This document shows, piece by piece, positions 8,798-23,935 of a DNA stretch of 64,000 nucleotides. Position 1 is the first letter of the stretch; each line of letters opens with the position of its first letter. Position numbers and translations under genes: made by a program. This DNA comes from Escherichia coli (lineage in GTDB: Bacteria; Pseudomonadota; Gammaproteobacteria; Enterobacterales; Enterobacteriaceae): NCBI RefSeq assembly GCF_003334815.1, contig NZ_QOWO01000016.1; one strand, given 5' to 3'. The notes under the pieces are model-generated. The model was not told the DNA's origin and made no database searches. It saw nothing but the letters and a program-made list of their open reading frames with translations.

Positions 8798-10625
8798 ATT
8801 TGAGCTTAAGGCGTTGATCACCGGTGTCGACAGGCTTTCTCCCGCGCTGTCGAAAATGCAAAAGAAAATCCGGGGATTTAAACGCCAGGCGGAAGAAGCG
8901 TCACAGGGGGGGCTGGCGCTTGGTGGCGGACTGGCAGCGGGTCTGACGCTTTCCCTGAAATCTTATGCCGATCAGGAAAACGCTGCCACCGGGCTGAAAG
9001 TCGCCATGATGGATGCGAACGGCGAGGTTGGAAAGCGCTTTCAGGACATCAATAAACTGGCTATTGGCCTGGGTAACCAGCTACCCGGTACAACGGCTGA
9101 TTTCCAGAACATGATGCAGATGCTGGTGCGTCAGGGGATCCCGGCAGAAAACATTCTTGGCGGTGTGGGTAAAGCGACAGCTTATCTTGCGGTACAACTG
9201 AAAAAAACACCGGAAGCGGCTGCCGAGTTTGCCGCAAAGATGCAGGATGCTACCGGAACGGCGTCAGAAGACATGATGGGGCTGTTCGACACAATTCAGA
9301 AGGCGTTTTATCTGGGCGTTGACGATACCAACATGTTGTCCTTCTTCACTAAAACCAGCTCTGTTCTGAAGATGGTGAACAAGGACGGTCTTCAGGCTGC
9401 ACAGAGCCTTGCCCCCATCAGCGTCATGATGGATCAGATGGGGATGAACGGGGAGTCGGCAGGTAACGCCCTGCGAAAAGTTATCCAGTCCGGATTAAGC
9501 GTTAAGAAAATCAGGGACGTCAATAAAATCATGGCCCGCCAGAAACTCGGGGTACAGCTCGATTTTACTGACGGCAAAGGGAGTTTTGGCGGTCTTGATA
9601 ACATGTTCAGGCAACTGGCAAAGCTGCGAAAACTGACCGACGTTAAACGAACTGGTGTACTTAAGGCAATATTTGGTGATGATGCTGAAACCCTTCAGGT
9701 GGTCAATGCGCTGATCGATAAAGGAAAGGATGGTTACGATCAGATCCAGCAGAAGATGAATAAACAGGCCAGCCTGAATAAACGTGTTCAGGCACAGCTT
9801 GGTACGCTGTCCAACCTGTGGGAGGCAATGACGGGGACCGCAACTAACGGTCTTGCAGCTATTGGCGGCGCATTTTCTGGTGACGCTAAAAATATCACGC
9901 AATGGCTGGGGGAGTTGGGGGAAAAATTCACGAAGTTTGCGGATGAAAATCCCCGGGTTATTCGCGGCGTCGTCGGGCTTGCTGCCGGTCTTGCGATTCT
10001 GAAACTGGGATTGATGGGCGTGGGCGGTGCCATCAGTATTGTCAGCAGGATCATGTCGATGACGCCGATTGGCATGATTGCGACGGCGATAGCCCTGGCT
10101 GCGGGATTAATTATCACTAACTGGGATGTTGTCGGACCTTATTTCAAGAAGCTCTGGGAAACCATTGGTCCTTATTTTGAGGCTGGCTGGGAACTCCTTA
10201 AGAAAGTTTTTGCCTGGTCGCCGCTGGGGATGGTGATCAATAACTGGGGGCCGGTTGTTAAGTGGTTTCAGGATATGTGGGACAAGCTGAAGCCAATTAT
10301 TGAGTGGTTTACCGACAGTTCCGGTGACACGGTCGATGCCATTAACTCTGCGCAGTGGGGCGCGGGTGCTTATGATGCTTATGGGACGGGAATACCGGCG
10401 CGGGGATACACACCTTATCCGGCGGTAGAGCCGGCTCAGTCAAACAACGCCTCCGATGCCACAGGCCCGAATCCCTTCATGATCAACAAAGCTTCTGCGC
10501 CAAAAGTTGATGGTGAGATCAAGGTCTCTTTTGTGAATTCGCCTCCGGGTATGCGGGTTATGGAAACGCGATCCAGCGGTTTTGATGTCAGCCATGATGT
10601 TGGCTATACGCGCTTTGGCAGGTAA
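8790..10625 (+). CDS. tail tape measure protein
   Basis: 611-aa ORF after chaperone pair; Ala/Gly-rich helical N-half and hydrophobic segment, typical of tape measure proteins. Confidence 0.85.
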   Translation: MAEFELKALITGVDRLSPALSKMQKKIRGFKRQAEEASQGGLALGGGLAAGLTLSLKSYADQENAATGLKVAMMDANGEVGKRFQDINKLAIGLGNQLPGTTADFQNMMQMLVRQGIPAENILGGVGKATAYLAVQLKKTPEAAAEFAAKMQDATGTASEDMMGLFDTIQKAFYLGVDDTNMLSFFTKTSSVLKMVNKDGLQAAQSLAPISVMMDQMGMNGESAGNALRKVIQSGLSVKKIRDVNKIMARQKLGVQLDFTDGKGSFGGLDNMFRQLAKLRKLTDVKRTGVLKAIFGDDAETLQVVNALIDKGKDGYDQIQQKMNKQASLNKRVQAQLGTLSNLWEAMTGTATNGLAAIGGAFSGDAKNITQWLGELGEKFTKFADENPRVIRGVVGLAAGLAILKLGLMGVGGAISIVSRIMSMTPIGMIATAIALAAGLIITNWDVVGPYFKKLWETIGPYFEAGWELLKKVFAWSPLGMVINNWGPVVKWFQDMWDKLKPIIEWFTDSSGDTVDAINSAQWGAGAYDAYGTGIPARGYTPYPAVEPAQSNNASDATGPNPFMINKASAPKVDGEIKVSFVNSPPGMRVMETRSSGFDVSHDVGYTRFGR

Positions 10626-16371: not shown

Positions 16372-16815
16372 ATGAATAAAGTTAAAAGTGTTTACAGCCC
16401 GTCCGAAAATGCAATCTACAACGCAGCGCTATATGAAAGTTATATCAAGGAGGGGACATGGCCGCAGGATGGTATTGAAATCAGCGATGAGGATGCTGTC
16501 AGATTTAATGGGGGAAATAAGCCAACAGGAAAAATGCTGGGAATGGTTTCAGGGACCCTTGCATGGGTTGATGAGCCGCCGCTTTCACCAGAACAGAAAA
16601 TATCAGATGCAGAAAACATGAAAGCCACATTTCGTGCAAAAGCTGACAGTGAAATATCCTGGCGTCAGGATGCTGTTGATGCTGGTATCGCAACTGATGA
16701 AGAAACTTCAACTCTCACCCAATGGAAGAAATACCGTGTGCTGCTGATGCGTGTTGATACTTCAACAGCACCCGATATTGAATGGCCTACGCCTCCGGCA
16801 GTCCAGGCCAGATGA
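16372..16815 (+). CDS. tail fibre assembly protein (orientation currently expressed)
   Basis: 147-aa ORF right after tail fibre; C-terminal WPTPP motif shared with the opposite-strand paralogue (WPGLP). Confidence 0.8.
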   Translation: MNKVKSVYSPSENAIYNAALYESYIKEGTWPQDGIEISDEDAVRFNGGNKPTGKMLGMVSGTLAWVDEPPLSPEQKISDAENMKATFRAKADSEISWRQDAVDAGIATDEETSTLTQWKKYRVLLMRVDTSTAPDIEWPTPPAVQAR

Positions 16816-17389
16816 CGTCCGGCGCTGTGCTGGTATCTGTTGCCGTCACCGCGTCAATGTAATCCAGCACGGCGTTAAGTCGGGTTGTTTCTGCCGGCGT
16901 CAACTTCCGTCCGGCCTGTAATTTCAACTGAATCAGACTGATGGAAGCCATTGCAGCATCAATCAGATACTGGCGCTGTGCTTCTGCCGCTTCTACTGCG
17001 GCGCTATGCTGTGCCTCAGTATCCGTCACCCATTTCTCACCATCCCATTTATCGTATGGCGTTAATGGGGCGATAGTGGTTGTATTATCAGGGTAATCAC
17101 CCGGAGCTGTGATTTCTTTGGCGTCTCCCGTTTCGGTGCTATAGACAATTTCACCACGATGGTCTGACACATATTCCCATGATTTTAAATCCATAGAACG
17201 GCAGATAGCATAACCCGCCTTATATGTGCCAGGTTCATCCAGACAGGAATATGCAGGGATACCGACACCAATGGCAAGATATTCATTTGAAGTAGAAATA
17301 TATTCCCGAGTTTTACCATCATAGTTATAGACGGTAATATTCCCCGCCTTCGTGGCAATAAGCTCGCTATTTAATACGGCGTTATCCAT
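16787..17389 (-). CDS. tail fibre assembly protein (alternative, inverted orientation)
   Basis: 200-aa ORF on opposite strand inside the invertible segment, convergent with the + strand assembly gene. Confidence 0.8.
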   Translation of the reverse strand: MDNAVLNSELIATKAGNITVYNYDGKTREYISTSNEYLAIGVGIPAYSCLDEPGTYKAGYAICRSMDLKSWEYVSDHRGEIVYSTETGDAKEITAPGDYPDNTTTIAPLTPYDKWDGEKWVTDTEAQHSAAVEAAEAQRQYLIDAAMASISLIQLKLQAGRKLTPAETTRLNAVLDYIDAVTATDTSTAPDVIWPGLPEA

Positions 17390-17870
17390 TATGCAGCCCT
17401 CACGATATAGTTAAATGCAATATTTCGTGGACGGGTTTCACTCCCGCCAGTATTACCGATACTCCCTCGTGAATGAAGTGTCGGTGATGGGATCAGACTC
17501 CCTCCTGTATTTGTGGCATCAAGTCCCCGTCCTTGTGTGTATGTCTTTTTGAAAATCGTAGCCAGTTCCCATTCATCTTTTGTGTCGTAACCATCATTGG
17601 CAACAACAATATGGCGGTGTTTTTCCAGCATCCCTGTCTGAATGCTCAATAAAACACGTCCTGCATCAATACCGCGCCCGTCATCCCAGCCACGAATAAA
17701 CTCACCACGTAAATCAGGCAATTTATTTGTCGGATAAGCCTTTGCCAGTTCCGGGTATTCTTCAGCAGAAAAAGCCGCACCGTTGCATTTCAGCCAGCCT
17801 GTTGGCGGTGTGGCTGAAGGCCATGGAACAGGCACACCAACAGGTAATGCAGAGCCTTCTCCCAAACCAA
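17389..17870 (-). CDS. alternative tail fibre variable C-terminal segment (promoterless; expressed after inversion)
   Basis: minus-strand ORF reading from the right crossover site; translation contains VGLGE at the junction matching LGLGE of the + strand fibre. Confidence 0.7.
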
Positions 17871-17876
17871 CGTTTA
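17856..17876 (-). repeat. gix/hix-like inversion crossover site (right)
   Basis: reverse complement carries TTGGTTTGGGAGAAG, identical to 15976..15990. Confidence 0.6.
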
Positions 17877-17936
17877 TGAAAATGCAGAAATAACGAGCAA
17901 ATGGCATCATTCCTGCTTTTGTCAGGGAGATCTACT

Positions 17937-18491
17937 ATGCTTATTGGCTATGTACGTGTGTCAACAAATGACCAGAACACAGATCTACAACGTAATGCGC
18001 TGAACTGTGCAGGATGCGAGCTGATTTTTGAAGACAAGATAAGCGGTACAAAGTCCGAAAGGCCGGGACTGAAAAAACTGCTCAGGACATTATCGGCAGG
18101 TGACACTCTGGTTGTCTGGAAGCTGGATCGGCTGGGGCGTAGTATGCGGCATCTGGTCATTCTGGTTGAGGAGTTGCGCGAACGTGGCGTTAATTTTCGC
18201 AGCCTGACGGATGCTATTGATACCAGCACACCGATGGGGCGTTTTTTCTTTCATGTGATGGGTGCCCTGGCTGAAATGGAACGAGAACTGATTGTTGAAC
18301 GAACAAAAGCTGGACTGGAAGCTGCTCGCGCACAGGGACGAATTGGGGGACGTCGTCCCAAACTTACACCAGAACAATGGGCGCAGGCCGGGCGATTAAT
18401 TGCATCAGGCGTTCCTCGCCAGAAGGTGGCGATCATCTATGATGTTGGTGTATCGACACTGTATAAGAAGTTTCCGGTCGGAGATAAATGA
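17937..18491 (+). CDS. DNA invertase, serine recombinase of Gin/Pin/Hin family
   Basis: 184 aa starting MLIGYVRVSTNDQ (catalytic Ser motif); GGGAG RBS; C-terminal HTH; adjacent to invertible segment. Confidence 0.9.
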   Translation: MLIGYVRVSTNDQNTDLQRNALNCAGCELIFEDKISGTKSERPGLKKLLRTLSAGDTLVVWKLDRLGRSMRHLVILVEELRERGVNFRSLTDAIDTSTPMGRFFFHVMGALAEMERELIVERTKAGLEAARAQGRIGGRRPKLTPEQWAQAGRLIASGVPRQKVAIIYDVGVSTLYKKFPVGDK

Positions 18492-18590: not shown

Positions 18591-18849
18591 ATTTTTTGCA
18601 TGAGATGATTTGAACGCCCTAGCACCAACCGTTCATGATTGCACGCCACTGTCTCTAGAACTGCTATGAGCATGAAGCCGCTGTTCAAACTAAGAATTTA
18701 TATGGCACTAACAGAAAAAATGTTACATATATGTTGAGCTTTAACGCAACATAGACATGTTCTATAGTTTGTGTCTCACCACCAGTTGAAAAAAAACGAA
18801 AATAGATTAACAATGTTCAGAAGAAACCTTCATAATAGAAGAGGTATAA

Positions 18850-19104
18850 ATGGGTAAGATTATTCGGTGGATGCTTTTTTTTGTCGGATTATTTTCCGTT
18901 GCATATTCAATATATAAATATCAACAATCTCCGCAGAGTTTATTTTACATAATCGGTGCTATAGGAACACTTTTATCTGCTACATGTGGTTTACTTGAGA
19001 TAAAAAGCAAGAAATCGAATGGCAGTATAACTGCTGGCGACAACTCAAATATCGTTGTCATTAATGGTTCAGAAAACACATCAAAAATAAAAAATAGAGG
19101 GTGA
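18850..19104 (+). CDS. small two-helix membrane protein (84 aa), unknown family - cassette 1 gene A
   Basis: ATG with AGAGG RBS ~7 nt upstream; two hydrophobic helices (res ~5-22, ~31-50) then polar tail containing GDNSNIVVINGSENT; hand-counted GC ~30-35%. Confidence 0.6.
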   Translation: MGKIIRWMLFFVGLFSVAYSIYKYQQSPQSLFYIIGAIGTLLSATCGLLEIKSKKSNGSITAGDNSNIVVINGSENTSKIKNRG

Positions 19105-19106
19105 TT

Positions 19107-20042
19107 ATGTTTGATAAAGAGGTTAACTTAGGAGACAACTCAAACGTAGTAAAAACAGAAGGGAATAACAACACAACAATAATAAATAATTTTGATGAGA
19201 AGTTTATAGGTCACGTTGTAAGATCCATGCTTTATGAAAGTATGCCTTCCTTTCAAGAAGAAGCTAGAAAAAAGATAATTGCGTCAACTGATGAATACAT
19301 TAGAGAGCTAATATCTGAGTTAGTAATTCAAAAAACAGATGCAGATACATTAAACCAAAAACTATCAACGCCTGACGTTCAATACTCTCTTTTTGAATCA
19401 GCTAAATGTTTTGCAAAAAATCCAGAAAGAACAGCAAAATCAACTCTGTTAAATTTAGTTGTAAAAAAAATAAATGAATTGGATGGAGATCATGAAGAGC
19501 TTTCCTCTATCGATCTGGCAATAAACGTCGCTACAAAACTTAGCGTAAAGCAAATAAGGTATATATCTTTAATATACTATATTAAAGATATTGTAAAAAT
19601 ATCACAAGATAGTGCCGGCGCTTATTGCATAATAGATCCTTCAAAAGATACAACAGAAGAAGTTGACGATTTCTTTTTATTCCCAAATGATATAAAAAGG
19701 AACAAGCAGGATGTTTATGATCTTTATATCGATCTATATAACAATCAAATGGATGTTGTATTTAAAGATGAAGAGATTGGCCCAGTTGATTATAGTATGC
19801 TTATAGCATTGGGTTGTATCATTCAACCTGCATTCCCTCAGCGAACATTTGTACAAAATGTAAAGAAAAGAACAGGATTAGATTTAAACGACAGCGAACA
19901 AAAATTAAAGCTATCGACATTCATTGAGAAAATAGAAAAAGCTATAGAGATAGATTCTGTCGATTATATAGTATTAACTACGGTTGGTAGACAAATAGCT
20001 AACGCCTATATATCAACAAGAATGAGATTAGTTAACTTATAA
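19107..20042 (+). CDS. 312-aa soluble protein of unknown family - cassette 1 gene B
   Basis: ATG at 19107 with AGAGGG 6 nt upstream, 2 nt after gene A stop (ORF track start 19101 is an upstream GTG); N-terminus contains GDNSNVVKTEGNNNT; hand-counted GC ~27%; followed by hairpin terminator. Confidence 0.65.
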   Translation: MFDKEVNLGDNSNVVKTEGNNNTTIINNFDEKFIGHVVRSMLYESMPSFQEEARKKIIASTDEYIRELISELVIQKTDADTLNQKLSTPDVQYSLFESAKCFAKNPERTAKSTLLNLVVKKINELDGDHEELSSIDLAINVATKLSVKQIRYISLIYYIKDIVKISQDSAGAYCIIDPSKDTTEEVDDFFLFPNDIKRNKQDVYDLYIDLYNNQMDVVFKDEEIGPVDYSMLIALGCIIQPAFPQRTFVQNVKKRTGLDLNDSEQKLKLSTFIEKIEKAIEIDSVDYIVLTTVGRQIANAYISTRMRLVNL

Positions 20043-20063
20043 ATATCTCATATTTCTTCATCC

Positions 20064-20099
20064 AAGGTGGTGGCTTCATCATCCACCGCCTTCTTTTCT
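20064..20099 (+). terminator. rho-independent terminator of cassette 1
   Basis: AAGGTGGTGG-CTTCATCAT-CCACCGCCTT hairpin followed by CTTTTCT. Confidence 0.55.
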
Positions 20100-20103
20100 G
20101 CTC

Positions 20104-20240
20104 TTAAGAGTAGTGAACAAACCACTCGTCAGCAAACTCCCAAGTATCTTTCAGAGTCTCCTGAACAAAAGCCTTAGCAGAATCCTTATCTGCGGTGTAC
20201 GTAACAGGAAAATCATCGCTATGGTAGCTTTGACGCTCAC
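20104..20240 (-). pseudogene. truncated dinI-like remnant (3' portion only)
   Basis: nucleotide similarity to the 3' end of the intact dinI-like gene at 21881..22129 (GTGAACAAACCACTCGTCAGCA.ACTCCCA.GTATCTTTCAGAG...); no N-terminal part or start codon. Confidence 0.6.
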
Positions 20241-20445: not shown

Positions 20446-20805
20446 ATGTTAACGCCGTTTGGTAAGACAGTAAGAAAAATGCGCATAGACTTGGGGCTTA
20501 CGCTTAAAAGCATGGCTGAGGCTATGGGCATGACCTCGTCTTATCTTTCAGCGATCGAAACTGGTAAAAGGGCGGTCACTAAGCCCGTGCTTGATAGCAT
20601 CATTAGCTATTTTAATGCGGATGAAAAACAAAAAGAAAAGCTTATCAGTGCAGCTCGTGACTCTCAGCAGTCAGTAGAGATCAGCTTGTCAGGTAAGAAT
20701 GGCCACGCTCGTGAAGTCGCAATTGCGTTCGCTCGTAGTTTTGATGAATTAAATGAAGAAGACTTCCGTAATTTACGACAGATTTTGAATCGAAAACAGC
20801 AGTAG
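20446..20805 (+). CDS. XRE-family helix-turn-helix transcriptional regulator
   Basis: 119 aa; N-terminal HTH region (LGLTLKSMAEAMGMTSSYLSAIETGKR) typical of XRE/Cro-C1 repressors. Confidence 0.8.
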   Translation: MLTPFGKTVRKMRIDLGLTLKSMAEAMGMTSSYLSAIETGKRAVTKPVLDSIISYFNADEKQKEKLISAARDSQQSVEISLSGKNGHAREVAIAFARSFDELNEEDFRNLRQILNRKQQ

Positions 20806-20813
20806 GAGGCGGC

Positions 20814-21335
20814 TTGAGCGGACAAGATTATCGTGTACCTCCGCAGAATCGTGAATCAATACGTTCTATCGTCACATCTCTGCGGAGCGCATTTGGTATT
20901 ACTGGGCTTAAATTCCCTGTAATGGAGGTAATTGAGTTCGCATTGCCTCAGTTGATCCCGGATTTTGAGTTCCACATTGGTGGCATGAAAGAAATGGGAG
21001 AAACGCATGGTCTTACGTACCCACAGGAACATTTATTGATTCTGCGCGAAGACATTTACGAAGGCGCTTTGAATGGGGTAGGGCGAGATAGGATGACTGC
21101 CGCGCATGAATTGGGTCATCTTCTTATGCACAGGAACATCGCATTTGCTCGTTCTGCCCCAGGGGTAAAAATCCGCCCTTTTGAGAGTAGTGAATGGCAA
21201 GCTAAATGTTTTAGTGGTGAGTTATTAGTGCCGGCTATGCATGTCAGTATTTTAAAAGGTATGACGGCTGAGGATGTTGCTAAGGCATGCGGAGTTTCAT
21301 TAGTGGCAGCGCGTTATCAGCTAGACAGAATGTAA
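20814..21335 (+). CDS. ImmA/IrrE-family zinc metallopeptidase
   Basis: 173 aa; TTG start 4 nt after TAGGAGG; HEXXH motif (AAHELGHLLMH); immediately downstream of XRE gene, the classic HTH-peptidase pair. Confidence 0.8.
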   Translation: MSGQDYRVPPQNRESIRSIVTSLRSAFGITGLKFPVMEVIEFALPQLIPDFEFHIGGMKEMGETHGLTYPQEHLLILREDIYEGALNGVGRDRMTAAHELGHLLMHRNIAFARSAPGVKIRPFESSEWQAKCFSGELLVPAMHVSILKGMTAEDVAKACGVSLVAARYQLDRM

Positions 21336-21338
21336 AAA

Positions 21339-21373
21339 CCCCTTGCTTGGCGCCAACCAGTGCAAGGGGCTTT
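21339..21373 (+). terminator. stem-loop after ImmA-like gene (putative terminator)
   Basis: CCCCTTGC ... GCAAGGGG inverted repeat with large loop, then CTTT. Confidence 0.4.
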
Positions 21374-21488
21374 AGGTGATGAATCCAAGAGGCATCACCA
21401 CCGTGAACAGCTTCGATAGACAGCCTGAAATTAACACCTTCAGGGAAGATGTTCAAGGGAAAAATCTCTCTTGGTAAGGAGGTGTTTT

Positions 21489-21593
21489 ATGAATGGGTTT
21501 GAAATCAATTGCTTCAAAAGCGGCGCCCAAAGGGTTCCGTTGGGTTTTCTGCCGTTACCGCAAGGTGCGTGGGAAATCAAAAAAAGTCCTTGA
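21489..21593 (+). CDS. small ORF (34 aa) with strong ribosome-binding site, unknown function
   Basis: AAGGAGG 6 nt upstream of ATG; translation MNGFEINCFKSGAQRVPLGFLPLPQGAWEIKKSP; terminator 60 nt downstream; not in ORF track (under 60 aa). Confidence 0.35.
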   Translation: MNGFEINCFKSGAQRVPLGFLPLPQGAWEIKKSP

Positions 21594-21654
21594 TGCTCAT
21601 GATTACGGGTACGAGGCGTGGGCATTTTTAGTGCGCTGCTAAGGGTTAGTATTT

Positions 21655-21680
21655 AAGGCACCTGCGGGTGCCTTTTTTGT
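21655..21680 (+). terminator. rho-independent terminator
   Basis: GGCACC-TGCG-GGTGCC hairpin followed by TTTTTT. Confidence 0.65.
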
Positions 21681-21774
21681 ATCCTCTGACCCGATTGGTG
21701 TCTTGCTGAGCCTGATAACTACCAATTTTTGTTATTACTATTCTACTATCGCTCAATCATGATTGGCGGGAGTT

Positions 21775-21877
21775 GAAACCGCAGGCACGTCGTATGCAAG
21801 AACGTGCTGCGGCTGGCTGGTGAACTTCCGATAGTGCGAGTATTGAATGATTTCCAGCCGTTACAGATTTTACGTGC
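21775..21877 (+). repeat. direct repeat copy 2 (~100 bp) at right edge of cargo region
   Basis: near-identical to 18489..18590. Confidence 0.7.
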
Positions 21878-21880
21878 TAA

Positions 21881-22129
21881 TTAGTGAACAAACCACTCGT
21901 CAGCAGACTCCCAGGTATCTTTCAGAGTTTCCTGAACAAAAGTTTTAGCTGAATCTTTATCGGCGGTGCGCGTAACAGAAAGGCCATCGTTGCTGGTGGC
22001 TTTTACGATCACCTCTACATCGTCATAACGCTTACTGATGCGTCGAGTTAATTCTTCCTTTAACGCATCCACAGCACCGTTTGGCATTTTAGTCATTTTC
22101 TCTTTAGCTATGCAGATCTCAATACGCAT
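21881..22129 (-). CDS. DinI-family protein (prophage-encoded)
   Basis: 82 aa [11 protein letters not shown]...[11 protein letters not shown], resembles DinI; two LexA boxes in its upstream region. Confidence 0.85.
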
Positions 22130-22213: not shown

Positions 22214-22329
22214 TGTACAAATGTTCTTTGGCTACAAATACACCTACTGATCATGTTCTGCTATGCTCTGATACCTCCAAAATGTACAATCAGCGGCATG
22301 AATTTTTCTTTGTACATATGATTGTACAT
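22214..22329. repeat. cluster of four TGTACA motifs incl. two TTCTTTG-N0-2-TACA(A/T) direct repeats upstream of prfC
   Basis: TGTACA at 22214, 22283, 22311, 22324. Confidence 0.4.
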
Positions 22330-22348
22330 AATTAAAGAGACAACAATT

Positions 22349-23935
22349 ATGACAAGCCTTTTGGCCGCAGAGGTAGCGAAAAGAAGAACCTTTGCAATTA
22401 TTTCTCACCCGGACGCCGGTAAAACTACCATCACCGAGAAGGTGCTGCTGTTCGGACAGGCCATTCAGACCGCCGGTACAGTAAAAGGCCGTGGCTCTAA
22501 CCAGCACGCTAAGTCGGACTGGATGGAGATGGAAAAGCAGCGTGGGATCTCCATTACCACGTCTGTGATGCAGTTTCCGTATCACGACTGCCTGGTTAAC
22601 CTGCTCGACACCCCGGGGCACGAAGACTTCTCGGAAGATACCTATCGTACCCTGACGGCGGTGGACTGCTGCCTGATGGTTATCGACGCTGCAAAAGGTG
22701 TTGAAGATCGTACCCGCAAGCTGATGGAAGTTACCCGTCTGCGCGACACGCCGATCCTCACCTTTATGAACAAACTTGACCGTGATATCCGCGACCCGAT
22801 GGAGCTGCTCGATGAAGTTGAGAACGAGCTGAAAATCGGCTGTGCACCGATCACCTGGCCGATTGGCTGCGGCAAGCTGTTTAAAGGCGTTTACCACCTT
22901 TATAAAGATGAAACCTATCTCTATCAGAGCGGTAAAGGCCACACCATTCAGGAAGTCCGCATTGTTAAAGGGCTGAATAACCCGGATCTCGACGCTGCGG
23001 TTGGTGAAGATCTGGCGCAGCAGCTGCGTGATGAACTGGAGCTGGTGAAAGGCGCGTCTAACGAGTTCGACAAAGAATTGTTCCTTGCGGGCGAAATCAC
23101 TCCGGTATTCTTCGGTACTGCGCTGGGTAACTTCGGCGTTGATCATATGCTGGATGGCCTGGTGGAGTGGGCACCTGCGCCGATGCCGCGTCAGACTGAT
23201 ACCCGTACTGTAGAAGCGAGCGAAGACAAATTTACCGGCTTCGTATTTAAAATTCAGGCCAACATGGACCCGAAACACCGTGACCGCGTGGCGTTTATGC
23301 GCGTGGTATCCGGTAAATATGAAAAAGGCATGAAGCTGCGCCAGGTGCGCACTGCGAAAGATGTGGTGATCTCCGACGCGCTGACCTTTATGGCGGGCGA
23401 CCGTTCGCACGTTGAAGAAGCGTATCCGGGCGATATCCTCGGCCTGCATAACCACGGCACTATTCAGATCGGCGACACCTTTACCCAGGGTGAGATGATG
23501 AAGTTCACTGGTATTCCGAACTTCGCGCCGGAACTGTTCCGTCGTATCCGCCTGAAAGATCCGCTGAAGCAAAAACAGCTGCTCAAAGGGCTGGTACAGC
23601 TTTCCGAAGAGGGCGCGGTGCAGGTGTTCCGTCCGATCTCCAACAACGACCTGATCGTTGGTGCAGTTGGTGTGCTGCAGTTTGATGTGGTGGTATCGCG
23701 CCTGAAGAGCGAATACAACGTTGAAGCAGTGTATGAGTCAGTCAACGTTGCCACTGCCCGCTGGGTAGAATGTGCGGACGCGAAGAAATTCGAAGAGTTC
23801 AAGCGTAAGAACGAAAGCCAACTGGCGCTTGATGGCGGCGATAACCTCGCTTACATCGCTACCAGCATGGTAAACCTGCGCCTGGCGCAGGAACGTTATC
23901 CGGACGTTCAGTTCCACCAGACCCGCGAGCATTAA
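22349..23935 (+). CDS. prfC: peptide chain release factor 3
   Basis: 528 aa from ATG 22349 ([27 protein letters not shown]...); GTPase motifs; ORF track start 22322 is an upstream in-frame ATG. Confidence 0.95.

Follow-up and report, generated by a model that had tools for sequence, protein, structure and literature searches.

What are two AT-rich genes doing directly behind the tail-fibre invertase of an Escherichia coli prophage? The question is raised by a stretch of 64,000 nt of E. coli DNA (contig NZ_QOWO01000016.1 of assembly GCF_003334815.1), which I will call the window, where the genes, A and B, occupy the region 18600-20100. The original prediction, made from the letters of the window, saw in them an undescribed system of defence or exclusion. 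The cassette proves instead to be PD-T2-1, and its two proteins may well be coupled through a motif that they share, at the C-terminus of A and the N-terminus of B.

The cassette and its published counterpart

Protein A is identical at 84 of 84 residues to the coding sequence WP_075861856.1 (annotated in NZ_CM128598.1), and protein B is identical at 311 of 311 residues to WP_087894771.1, whose gene lies directly 3' of A. The first of these accessions is that of PD-T2-1A of E. coli ECOR03 (Nagy, Gersabeck, Conte and Whiteley, bioRxiv 10.1101/2025.07.02.662641 / PMC12236752), and a full-text search for both accessions found this one preprint, of July 2025. The accession of PD-T2-1B is printed there as WP_08789477.1, one digit short of WP_087894771.1, and the equation of B with PD-T2-1B rests on this shortened accession together with the adjacency of B to PD-T2-1A. 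The system of ECOR03 agrees with that of the window in its genes, in its organization as a two-gene operon and in its location within a prophage. By protein identity, which is exact, the cassette is thus shown to be PD-T2-1, a two-gene, prophage-borne antiphage system. The defence system is already known, and the claim to its discovery is pre-empted, since the preprint describes it. What stands is the proposal of a horizontally acquired defence module in which a small membrane protein is paired with a larger partner in the cytoplasm, as the two proteins are identical to PD-T2-1A and PD-T2-1B, for which protection against phage has been published.

Nagy et al. (10.1101/2025.07.02.662641) drove the operon from its native promoter. 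In MG1655, PD-T2-1 confers more than 100-fold protection against T2 and T6, and protection of roughly 10-fold against T4 and T5, and cells with the system stop growing upon co-expression of any of several tail-fibre proteins: gp17 of T7 or gp37, gp34 or gp12 of T2. Among the transposon insertions that suppressed the toxicity of T7 gp17 in ECOR03, 28 of 48 lay within the PD-T2-1 operon. The authors favour an indirect sensing of the tail-fibre proteins. They found the analysis of sequence and structure to be "largely uninformative" and left the mechanism open.

In the window, the two genes constitute one operon of 31-33% GC on the + strand. Gene A, from the list of open reading frames, extends from 18850 to 19104 and encodes 84 amino acids. 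Gene B extends from 19107 to 20042 and encodes 311 amino acids when read from its ATG, the same length as in RefSeq (the 312 given by the original prediction needs this correction; an alternative start, the GTG at 19101, would give 313). The TGA of A (19102-19104) is separated from the ATG of B by a gap of 2 nt, and a GAGG-type Shine-Dalgarno sequence can be seen 6-8 nt 5' of each gene. The positions and common strand of the open reading frames, the 2-nt spacing and the separate ribosome-binding sites had all been read correctly from the start, and so had the presence of a terminator downstream. The latter is an intrinsic terminator at 20064-20100 (+ strand), with a 10-bp stem, a 9-nt loop and a U-rich tract. 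Its folding energy is -15.3 kcal/mol (z = -5.2), which none of 200 shuffled sequences equals, and it was overlooked by a consensus pattern scanner because of the 9-nt loop. The best match to a promoter 5' of A is a sigma-70-like site at 18807-18836 (+ strand), composed of TTAACA, an 18-nt spacer and CATAAT (10 of 12 positions). Such sites are as numerous across the region as shuffling leads one to expect, and this one is a candidate only.

The composition of the cassette sets it apart from its surroundings: the GC fraction is 0.333 in A, 0.310 in B and 0.327 over 18600-20100, as compared to 0.525 in the window as a whole. The contrast drawn by the original prediction is real, with 0.453 in the neighbouring XRE/ImmA genes, although the tail genes have a fraction of 0.556 and not the 65% or so that had been supposed.

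The motif at the facing ends of the two proteins

The tail of A resembles the beginning of B. The motif occupies residues 60-82 of A (ITAGDNSNIVVINGSENTSKIKN; 19027-19095, + strand) and residues 5-27 of B (VNLGDNSNVVKTEGNNNTTIINN; 19119-19187, + strand). In the comparison of motifs amongst loci, the window is represented by ITAGDNSNIVVINGSENTS from the A tail and VNLGDNSNVVKTEGNNNTT from the B N-terminus. Similarity was assessed in 13 cognate pairs by Smith-Waterman alignment against 2000 composition-preserving shuffles. The pair of the window has a score of 60, against a shuffle mean of 26.9 (standard deviation 5.3; z = 6.3), and none of the 2000 shuffles reaches that score.

The same arrangement is found in the relatives of B. 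Loci were examined for a partner of the A type where upstream DNA was readable (L002, L015 (partial), L016, L018-L020 and L022-L040), and all unfused B homologues amongst them have a small gene upstream, encoding 63-106 amino acids. The partner gene usually overlaps that of B by 4 nt, and its product has one or two hydrophobic segments (two in most of the homologous partners) and a polar tail, whose last 20 or so residues resemble the first 25 or so residues of the cognate B. The score of cognate tail and N-terminus exceeds those of the shuffles in 11 of the 13 pairs, with z ranging from 2.9 to 12.3. The motif comes in subtypes (GDNSN-VV, INSGRDT, IQAGND and GIQ(I/V)GGN), which co-vary within pairs, and the best partner of each A tail other than its own is one of the same subtype. 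Examples, each given as A tail and then B N-terminus, are QSSGNQSKTINSGRDTKITV and QSSGDNSNTINSGRDTTVTV at L015, QKIGDGGFGIQAGNDINI and QKVGDGSTAIQAGNDVVI at L032, QSIGKNSSGIQVGGNLTIG and QHVGDNSSAIQVAGNATIG at L020, and NKQSQKLGNQSTGIQVGGDISI and NKQSQKVGDNSTSIQAGGNVKI at L038; the pair IGKNSSGIQVGGNLTIG / VGDNSSAIQVAGNATIG is of the L020 type.

Might the likeness be no more than the trace of a recent duplication of DNA? This explanation was considered and rejected. Of 100 residues on which the two copies agree across nine pairs, 44 have different synonymous codons, and therefore the likeness is kept at the level of protein.

Many copies of the motif have a recognizable core. Of 12 A-type tails from the relatives, 10 have a G-φ-Q-φ-G sequence, in the form G-(I/L)-Q-(I/V/A)-G, and G-φ-Q-φ-G is the signature of the RHIM, PP and BASS3 motifs (Dyrka et al., bioRxiv 10.1101/2020.01.06.895854). 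On the side of B, 26 of 88 representative homologues have the strict form φ-Q-φ-G in their leaders, and most of the others have a related leader rich in G, N, Q and T.

The motif of A follows two hydrophobic segments, residues 4-22 and 31-49 (18859-18996, + strand), as had been described at the outset. Their Kyte-Doolittle means over 19 residues are 1.66 and 1.93, respectively, and they are predicted to form a helical hairpin. The tail is polar and rich in lysine, with a count of lysine plus arginine of 6, as compared to 2 at the N-terminus and 1 in the loop. The topology is predicted from these features of the sequence to be N-in/C-in, which would put the tail of A on the same side of the membrane as B, that is, in the cytoplasm. 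A has no match in Pfam, NCBIfam or PADLOC, and its close relatives fall into only 6 clusters, all in Enterobacterales.

B, for which no family could be named at first, is a member of NCBIfam NF045477 (the LPO_1073/Vpar_1526 family): it scores 85.9 bits (E = 3.4e-24), where 45 is the cut-off, and in its close homologues PF28206 (Vpar_1526) is the precomputed Pfam label. It consists of the Vpar_1526 domain only and lacks a catalytic motif. The family is small: a search of 1.84 billion proteins at E ≤ 1e-3 yields 89 representative clusters. A Foldseek search of AFDB50 recovers members of the family across many phyla, together with some neighbours annotated as DUF4393 (E = 3.5e-9, TM-scores of 0.61/0.69). 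PADLOC-DB v2.0.0 holds no family at E ≤ 1 for A or for B, a sequence-profile search of the PDB gave nothing below E = 0.1, and a search of viral folds in BFVD gave no match. A scan of viral contigs with alignment A2 found one near-identical locus only, and one of genome contigs found no relative. Homology of B to a structural, lysis or regulatory protein of phages would have told against the idea of a defence system; none was found in the homology searches, and such a role is rejected.

The AlphaFold2 model of B (built from 58 homologues; predicted local distance difference test score, pLDDT, 85.2; predicted template modelling score 0.79) has three parts. Residues 1-27, within which the motif lies, are disordered, with pLDDT below 50. 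Residues 31-161 (19197-19589, + strand) make up a conserved, all-helical N-domain, which most of the 89 representative homologues have in common. Residues 164-311 (19596-20039, + strand), the C-terminal half, consist of a small β unit (164-199) followed by helices, and are poorly conserved across the family. Since the most distant homologues align to residues 5-165 or so and no further, the leader and the helical domain may be regarded as the conserved core (G9 and D10 in the leader are invariant in alignment A2) and the C-terminal half as variable. I infer that it is this half that sets specificity or sensing.

Some members of the family carry a further module at their N-terminus. Two independent homologues (P0047 and P0074) have an HNH nuclease of about 100 amino acids before the Vpar_1526 domain, which matches the PDC-M68A, SduA and CBASS SAVED-HNH (Cap5-type) effectors of PADLOC (1e-15 to 1e-29) as well as PDB entries 9om4 and 7rwm. 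Three others (P0059, P0099 and P0050) have N-terminal hydrophobic, presumably transmembrane, segments fused in cis to the domain, and a fourth with such segments (P0011) reads as a straight fusion of A to B. Immune proteins of the sensor-effector kind typically combine a constant domain with killing modules that can be exchanged, and the exchange seen here indicates that sensing or regulation falls to the Vpar_1526 domain and that A is the effector. In addition, the distant relatives L037 (232-2244) and L039/L040 (1831-3852) have a gene for one small two-segment membrane protein followed by two tandem Vpar_1526 paralogues, each with its own N-terminal x-φ-Q-A-G-G motif, an arrangement that can be read as one effector served by two sensors.

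The proposed coupling of sensor and effector

How might such a pair of proteins act? The reading I favour, to which I would grant an even chance, is by analogy with known amyloid signalling: B would be a sensor and A a membrane executioner, the two coupled by amyloid-like templating of their shared β-motif. B, by virtue of its Vpar_1526 domain, would act in the cytoplasm, and A would be a helical hairpin in the inner membrane, with a cytoplasmic tail, that executes the response. The link between them would be the G/N-rich, β-prone motif of about 20 residues at the C-terminus of A and in the disordered N-terminus of B. Late in infection a tail-fibre protein, or a consequence or intermediate of its folding, would be sensed, directly or indirectly, and B would oligomerise. 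The N-terminal motifs of B, once clustered, would stack into an amyloid-like β fold, by which the tails of A are recruited and templated, and the hairpins of A, clustered in turn, would damage the inner membrane. Growth would then stop before progeny phage mature or are released, the outcome called abortive infection. In those homologues that carry HNH, oligomerisation would instead switch on the nuclease. The scheme shares its logic with Bab/Agp (BASS11) and with the effector-NLR amyloid signalling of fungi and bacteria, but differs from them in both sensor and effector. That residues 1-27 of B are disordered in an otherwise confident model may be counted in favour of a coupling through the motif.

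Several observations weigh against this reading. One of the pairs, that of L022, shows no significant similarity of motifs (z = 0.3). The motif of PD-T2-1 itself is of a divergent subtype without the Q core, reading NIVVING in A and NVVKTEG in B, and the RHIM/BASS3/PP signature is absent from both PD-T2-1A and PD-T2-1B. The Pfam RHIM model does not match a homologue of A (the partner at L023), and a local copy of Pfam-A, one without PF28206, gave no match for B nor for any of 58 family members. A construct of three B leaders and three A tails was modelled by AlphaFold2 with three short strands per copy, but at low confidence (mean pLDDT 44). Nagy et al. report that only one transmembrane segment is predicted in A and that AlphaFold3 gives an interface score (ipTM) of 0.5 or less for A with B (10.1101/2025.07.02.662641). 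In the HNH and transmembrane fusions, the motif is present only as an internal linker; templating between two proteins is therefore not obligatory, and the motif may serve plain self-association. The fusion of A to B in P0011 comes from a single contig of 1.6 kb. Finally, amyloid behaviour of the PD-T2-1 motifs is putative, by analogy with Bab/Agp.

The alternative that survives best keeps the contact between the motifs but gives it the opposite sense. A would be a constitutively toxic membrane peptide, and in uninfected cells B would hold it inactive by ordinary pairing of β-strands between the motifs, as in the release of a toxin from its antitoxin, until tail-fibre proteins titrate B, or B is lost, and A is set free; neither templating nor amyloid would come into play. 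Gene order, translational coupling and the shared motif would fit such a static tether, and the effector genes of abortive-infection modules commonly adjoin those of their own inhibitors. The suppressor insertions, 28 of 48 in the operon, would also fit; the passage of the preprint that reports them does not say whether they fell in A only or in both genes. However, the HNH and transmembrane fusions put an effector in cis with the Vpar_1526 domain, which better suits a sensor that activates than an antitoxin that can be titrated, and L037 and L039 have one A for two B paralogues. AlphaFold3, moreover, finds no stable complex of A and B (Nagy et al.). I consider a tether of this kind possible, if unlikely.

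Alternatively, B might be the effector, through some unrecognised activity of the Vpar_1526 fold perhaps related to Abiα (DUF4393), and A might merely anchor or localise it at the membrane by way of the shared motif. The structural neighbours annotated as DUF4393 lend this idea some weight, as does the fact that Abiα is a single-gene abortive-infection system that leads to premature lysis (PMC6356687). The relation of B to Abiα/DUF4393 is, however, a lead at the level of fold and not one of membership: none of the 58 members of alignment A1 matches Pfam Abi_alpha. Furthermore, B has no catalytic motif, and the recurrent nuclease and transmembrane modules at the N-terminus argue for a killing activity outside of the Vpar_1526 domain. 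All told, a killing activity in B itself seems quite improbable. Least credible by far is an exclusion of superinfection at the envelope, in which A and B would block adsorption or the entry of DNA with no killing of the infected cell, for although the module is a prophage accessory with a membrane protein and T-even phages are its main targets, the expression of tail-fibre genes from a plasmid within the cell halts growth, and this speaks for cytoplasmic sensing and self-harm.

The prophage setting and comparison with known systems

The cassette lies near the right end of a prophage inserted beside prfC (22322-23935). The gene directly before it, at 17901-18491, encodes a Pin-type invertase (PHROG 125, 1e-97), in keeping with the position just after a tail-fibre invertase that had been assigned to it. 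The invertase is abutted in turn by an invertible tail-fibre segment (16372-17910), with a tail-fibre C-terminus and assembly genes on the + strand (16372-16815) and an alternative tail-fibre set on the - strand (16787-17389 and 17389-17910), typical of host-range switching of the Mu/P1/e14 type. A megablast search found the A/B pair in only 4 of 5426 complete E. coli genomes, at 98.7% DNA identity, and all four share the order pinE, A, B, DinI-like gene, prfC. In four relatives that were sampled, the slot after pinE contains other cargo (hypothetical proteins, an FRG-domain protein and a "4-fold beta flower" protein). The slot is thus a variable one, as had been proposed, and the pair is not strictly conserved across related prophages.

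Downstream the window departs from the four carrier genomes. A truncated DinI-like pseudogene, at 20103-20215 (- strand), lies 3' of the terminator, its C-terminal 35 or so residues intact and its N-terminus lost. It is followed by a gene encoding an XRE-family HTH protein (20446-20805, + strand), which matches capH of PADLOC (3.6e-10), and one encoding an ImmA/IrrE metallopeptidase (20814-21335, + strand), which matches capP (4.9e-11); capH and capP are DNA-damage-responsive regulators of defence operons. Then come about 545 bp with short open reading frames only (21336-21880) and a second, intact DinI-like gene (21881-22129, - strand) between ImmA and prfC. The XRE/ImmA block, which in the window follows the cassette and the DinI-like fragment, is absent from the four complete carrier genomes. 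At the same prfC site, strain 510016 has a lambdoid prophage with an IS1-disrupted reverse transcriptase and SLATT pair, and behind that pair the DinI fragment, XRE, ImmA and DinI genes as in the window. Left of the DinI fragment, the window matches an E600003-type prophage (98.3%), right of it strain 510016 (99.8%), and the full arrangement is found in none of the complete E. coli genomes searched. This two-sided match points to two prophages of the prfC site having recombined, probably within their dinI-like genes. Regulation of the cassette by XRE/ImmA was considered and rejected, for four genomes carry the pair without those genes, and the two genes alone suffice in MG1655 (Nagy et al.).

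Relatives of the pair are found in other kinds of element. A 90%-identical pair comes from Atlantibacter hermannii and from metagenomes, where it resides in the remnant of a P4-like satellite (with the Pfam labels Psu, Ogr/Delta and Pox_D5), beside RhuM, HicB and SymE genes. Directly 3' of psu in this element (L002-L006, 397-4057) are a UvrD-like helicase gene and a gene for a protein of 263 amino acids without a Pfam match, which may be further defence cargo in a satellite hotspot. More distant pairs occur in lambdoid prophages, where they are encoded on the opposite strand and lie between the module for lysis and that for terminase, an interval that is the classic position of morons. One lambdoid prophage (L020) also has an HNH_2 gene and a CAP12-PCTIR_TIR gene (7213-8903) a few kb from its A/B-type pair, suggesting a small defence cluster. 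A minimal pair, consisting of a 63-aa partner with a single transmembrane segment and a GIQVGG tail and a Vpar_1526 protein of 351 amino acids, lies directly 5' of a lysis cassette with holin and amidase, in a phage whose host is of the Gram-positive type (L038, 780-3974). Behind the HNH::Vpar_1526 fusion gene of P0047 (L017, 144-2992) come two genes without annotation, which encode 296 and 192 amino acids.

Amongst known systems, RexA/RexB of phage lambda likewise combines, in two prophage genes, a sensor in the cytoplasm with a protein of the membrane, and the latter depolarises the cell upon T-even-type infection. RexB has four transmembrane segments, and the two proteins are not known to share a terminal motif. 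Abiα (EF2833 of prophage 6 of E. faecalis V583; Lossouarn et al. 2019, PMC6356687) is likewise an abortive-infection protein from a prophage, of about 270 amino acids, but it acts as a single gene whereas PD-T2-1 acts as a pair, and its likeness to B is at the level of fold only.

The gene pairs of effector and NLR described by Dyrka et al. (10.1101/2020.01.06.895854) overlap by 4 bp and have the motif at the C-terminus of the effector and the N-terminus of the sensor. PD-T2-1 resembles these Bell/NLR BASS pairs in that the presumed effector gene is upstream (with a 2-nt gap in the window and mostly 4-nt overlaps in the relatives, where Bell/NLR pairs often overlap by 4 bp), in that the two genes are adjacent and co-oriented, in the shared terminal motif and, as regards the relatives, in the G-φ-Q-φ-G core of those 10 A-type tails. 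It differs from them in its proteins: A has no Bell/HeLo-type domain, and B is neither an NLR, with NB-ARC or NACHT, nor a TGP protein. The hosts differ too, as pairs of the PD-T2-1 type are found in Enterobacterales and in prophages, and Bell/NLR pairs in filamentous bacteria.

Bab/Agp (BASS11) of E. coli ECOR25, the closest system whose mechanism has been worked out, is likewise encoded by adjacent prophage genes, likewise brings about abortive infection, and likewise has a motif of about 20 amino acids at the C-terminus of a small membrane-targeting protein and the N-terminus of a larger sensor. Peptides of its motif form fibrils, infection by T5 triggers an assembly that depends on Agp, and β-breaker mutations in either copy of the motif abolish abortive infection (Ibarlosa et al., bioRxiv 10.1101/2024.11.07.622273). 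Bab has a Bell-type helical domain, however, where PD-T2-1A has a two-segment transmembrane hairpin, and amyloid behaviour has been shown for Bab/Agp, whereas for PD-T2-1 it is putative.

To the published account of PD-T2-1 the present comparison of sequences would add the co-varying terminal motif, the upstream membrane partner and the swapping of HNH and transmembrane effectors across the B family. A search of the literature found no paper that links PD-T2-1 or Vpar_1526 to amyloid signalling. Inasmuch as the describing paper left the mechanism open, the co-varying motif provides a concrete hypothesis that can be cheaply tested, and the fusions identify the Vpar_1526 domain as a sensor module that is portable. 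A broader view, to which I would give somewhat less than an even chance, is that the family, with its 89 clusters in many phyla and its prophage morons, represents a second widespread class of amyloid-like immune modules of the RHIM/BASS type, in which the sensing of tail fibres nucleates a cross-β motif on a sensor that is not an NLR and so either templates a two-helix executioner or activates a fused HNH. Were that true, amyloid-type signalling would not be confined to Bab/Agp but would reach a broad family without NLR or TGP sensors, RHIM-like G-φ-Q-φ-G cores would be common in the cargo of enterobacterial prophages, and the sensing of a late structural protein would be linked to a minimal membrane effector.

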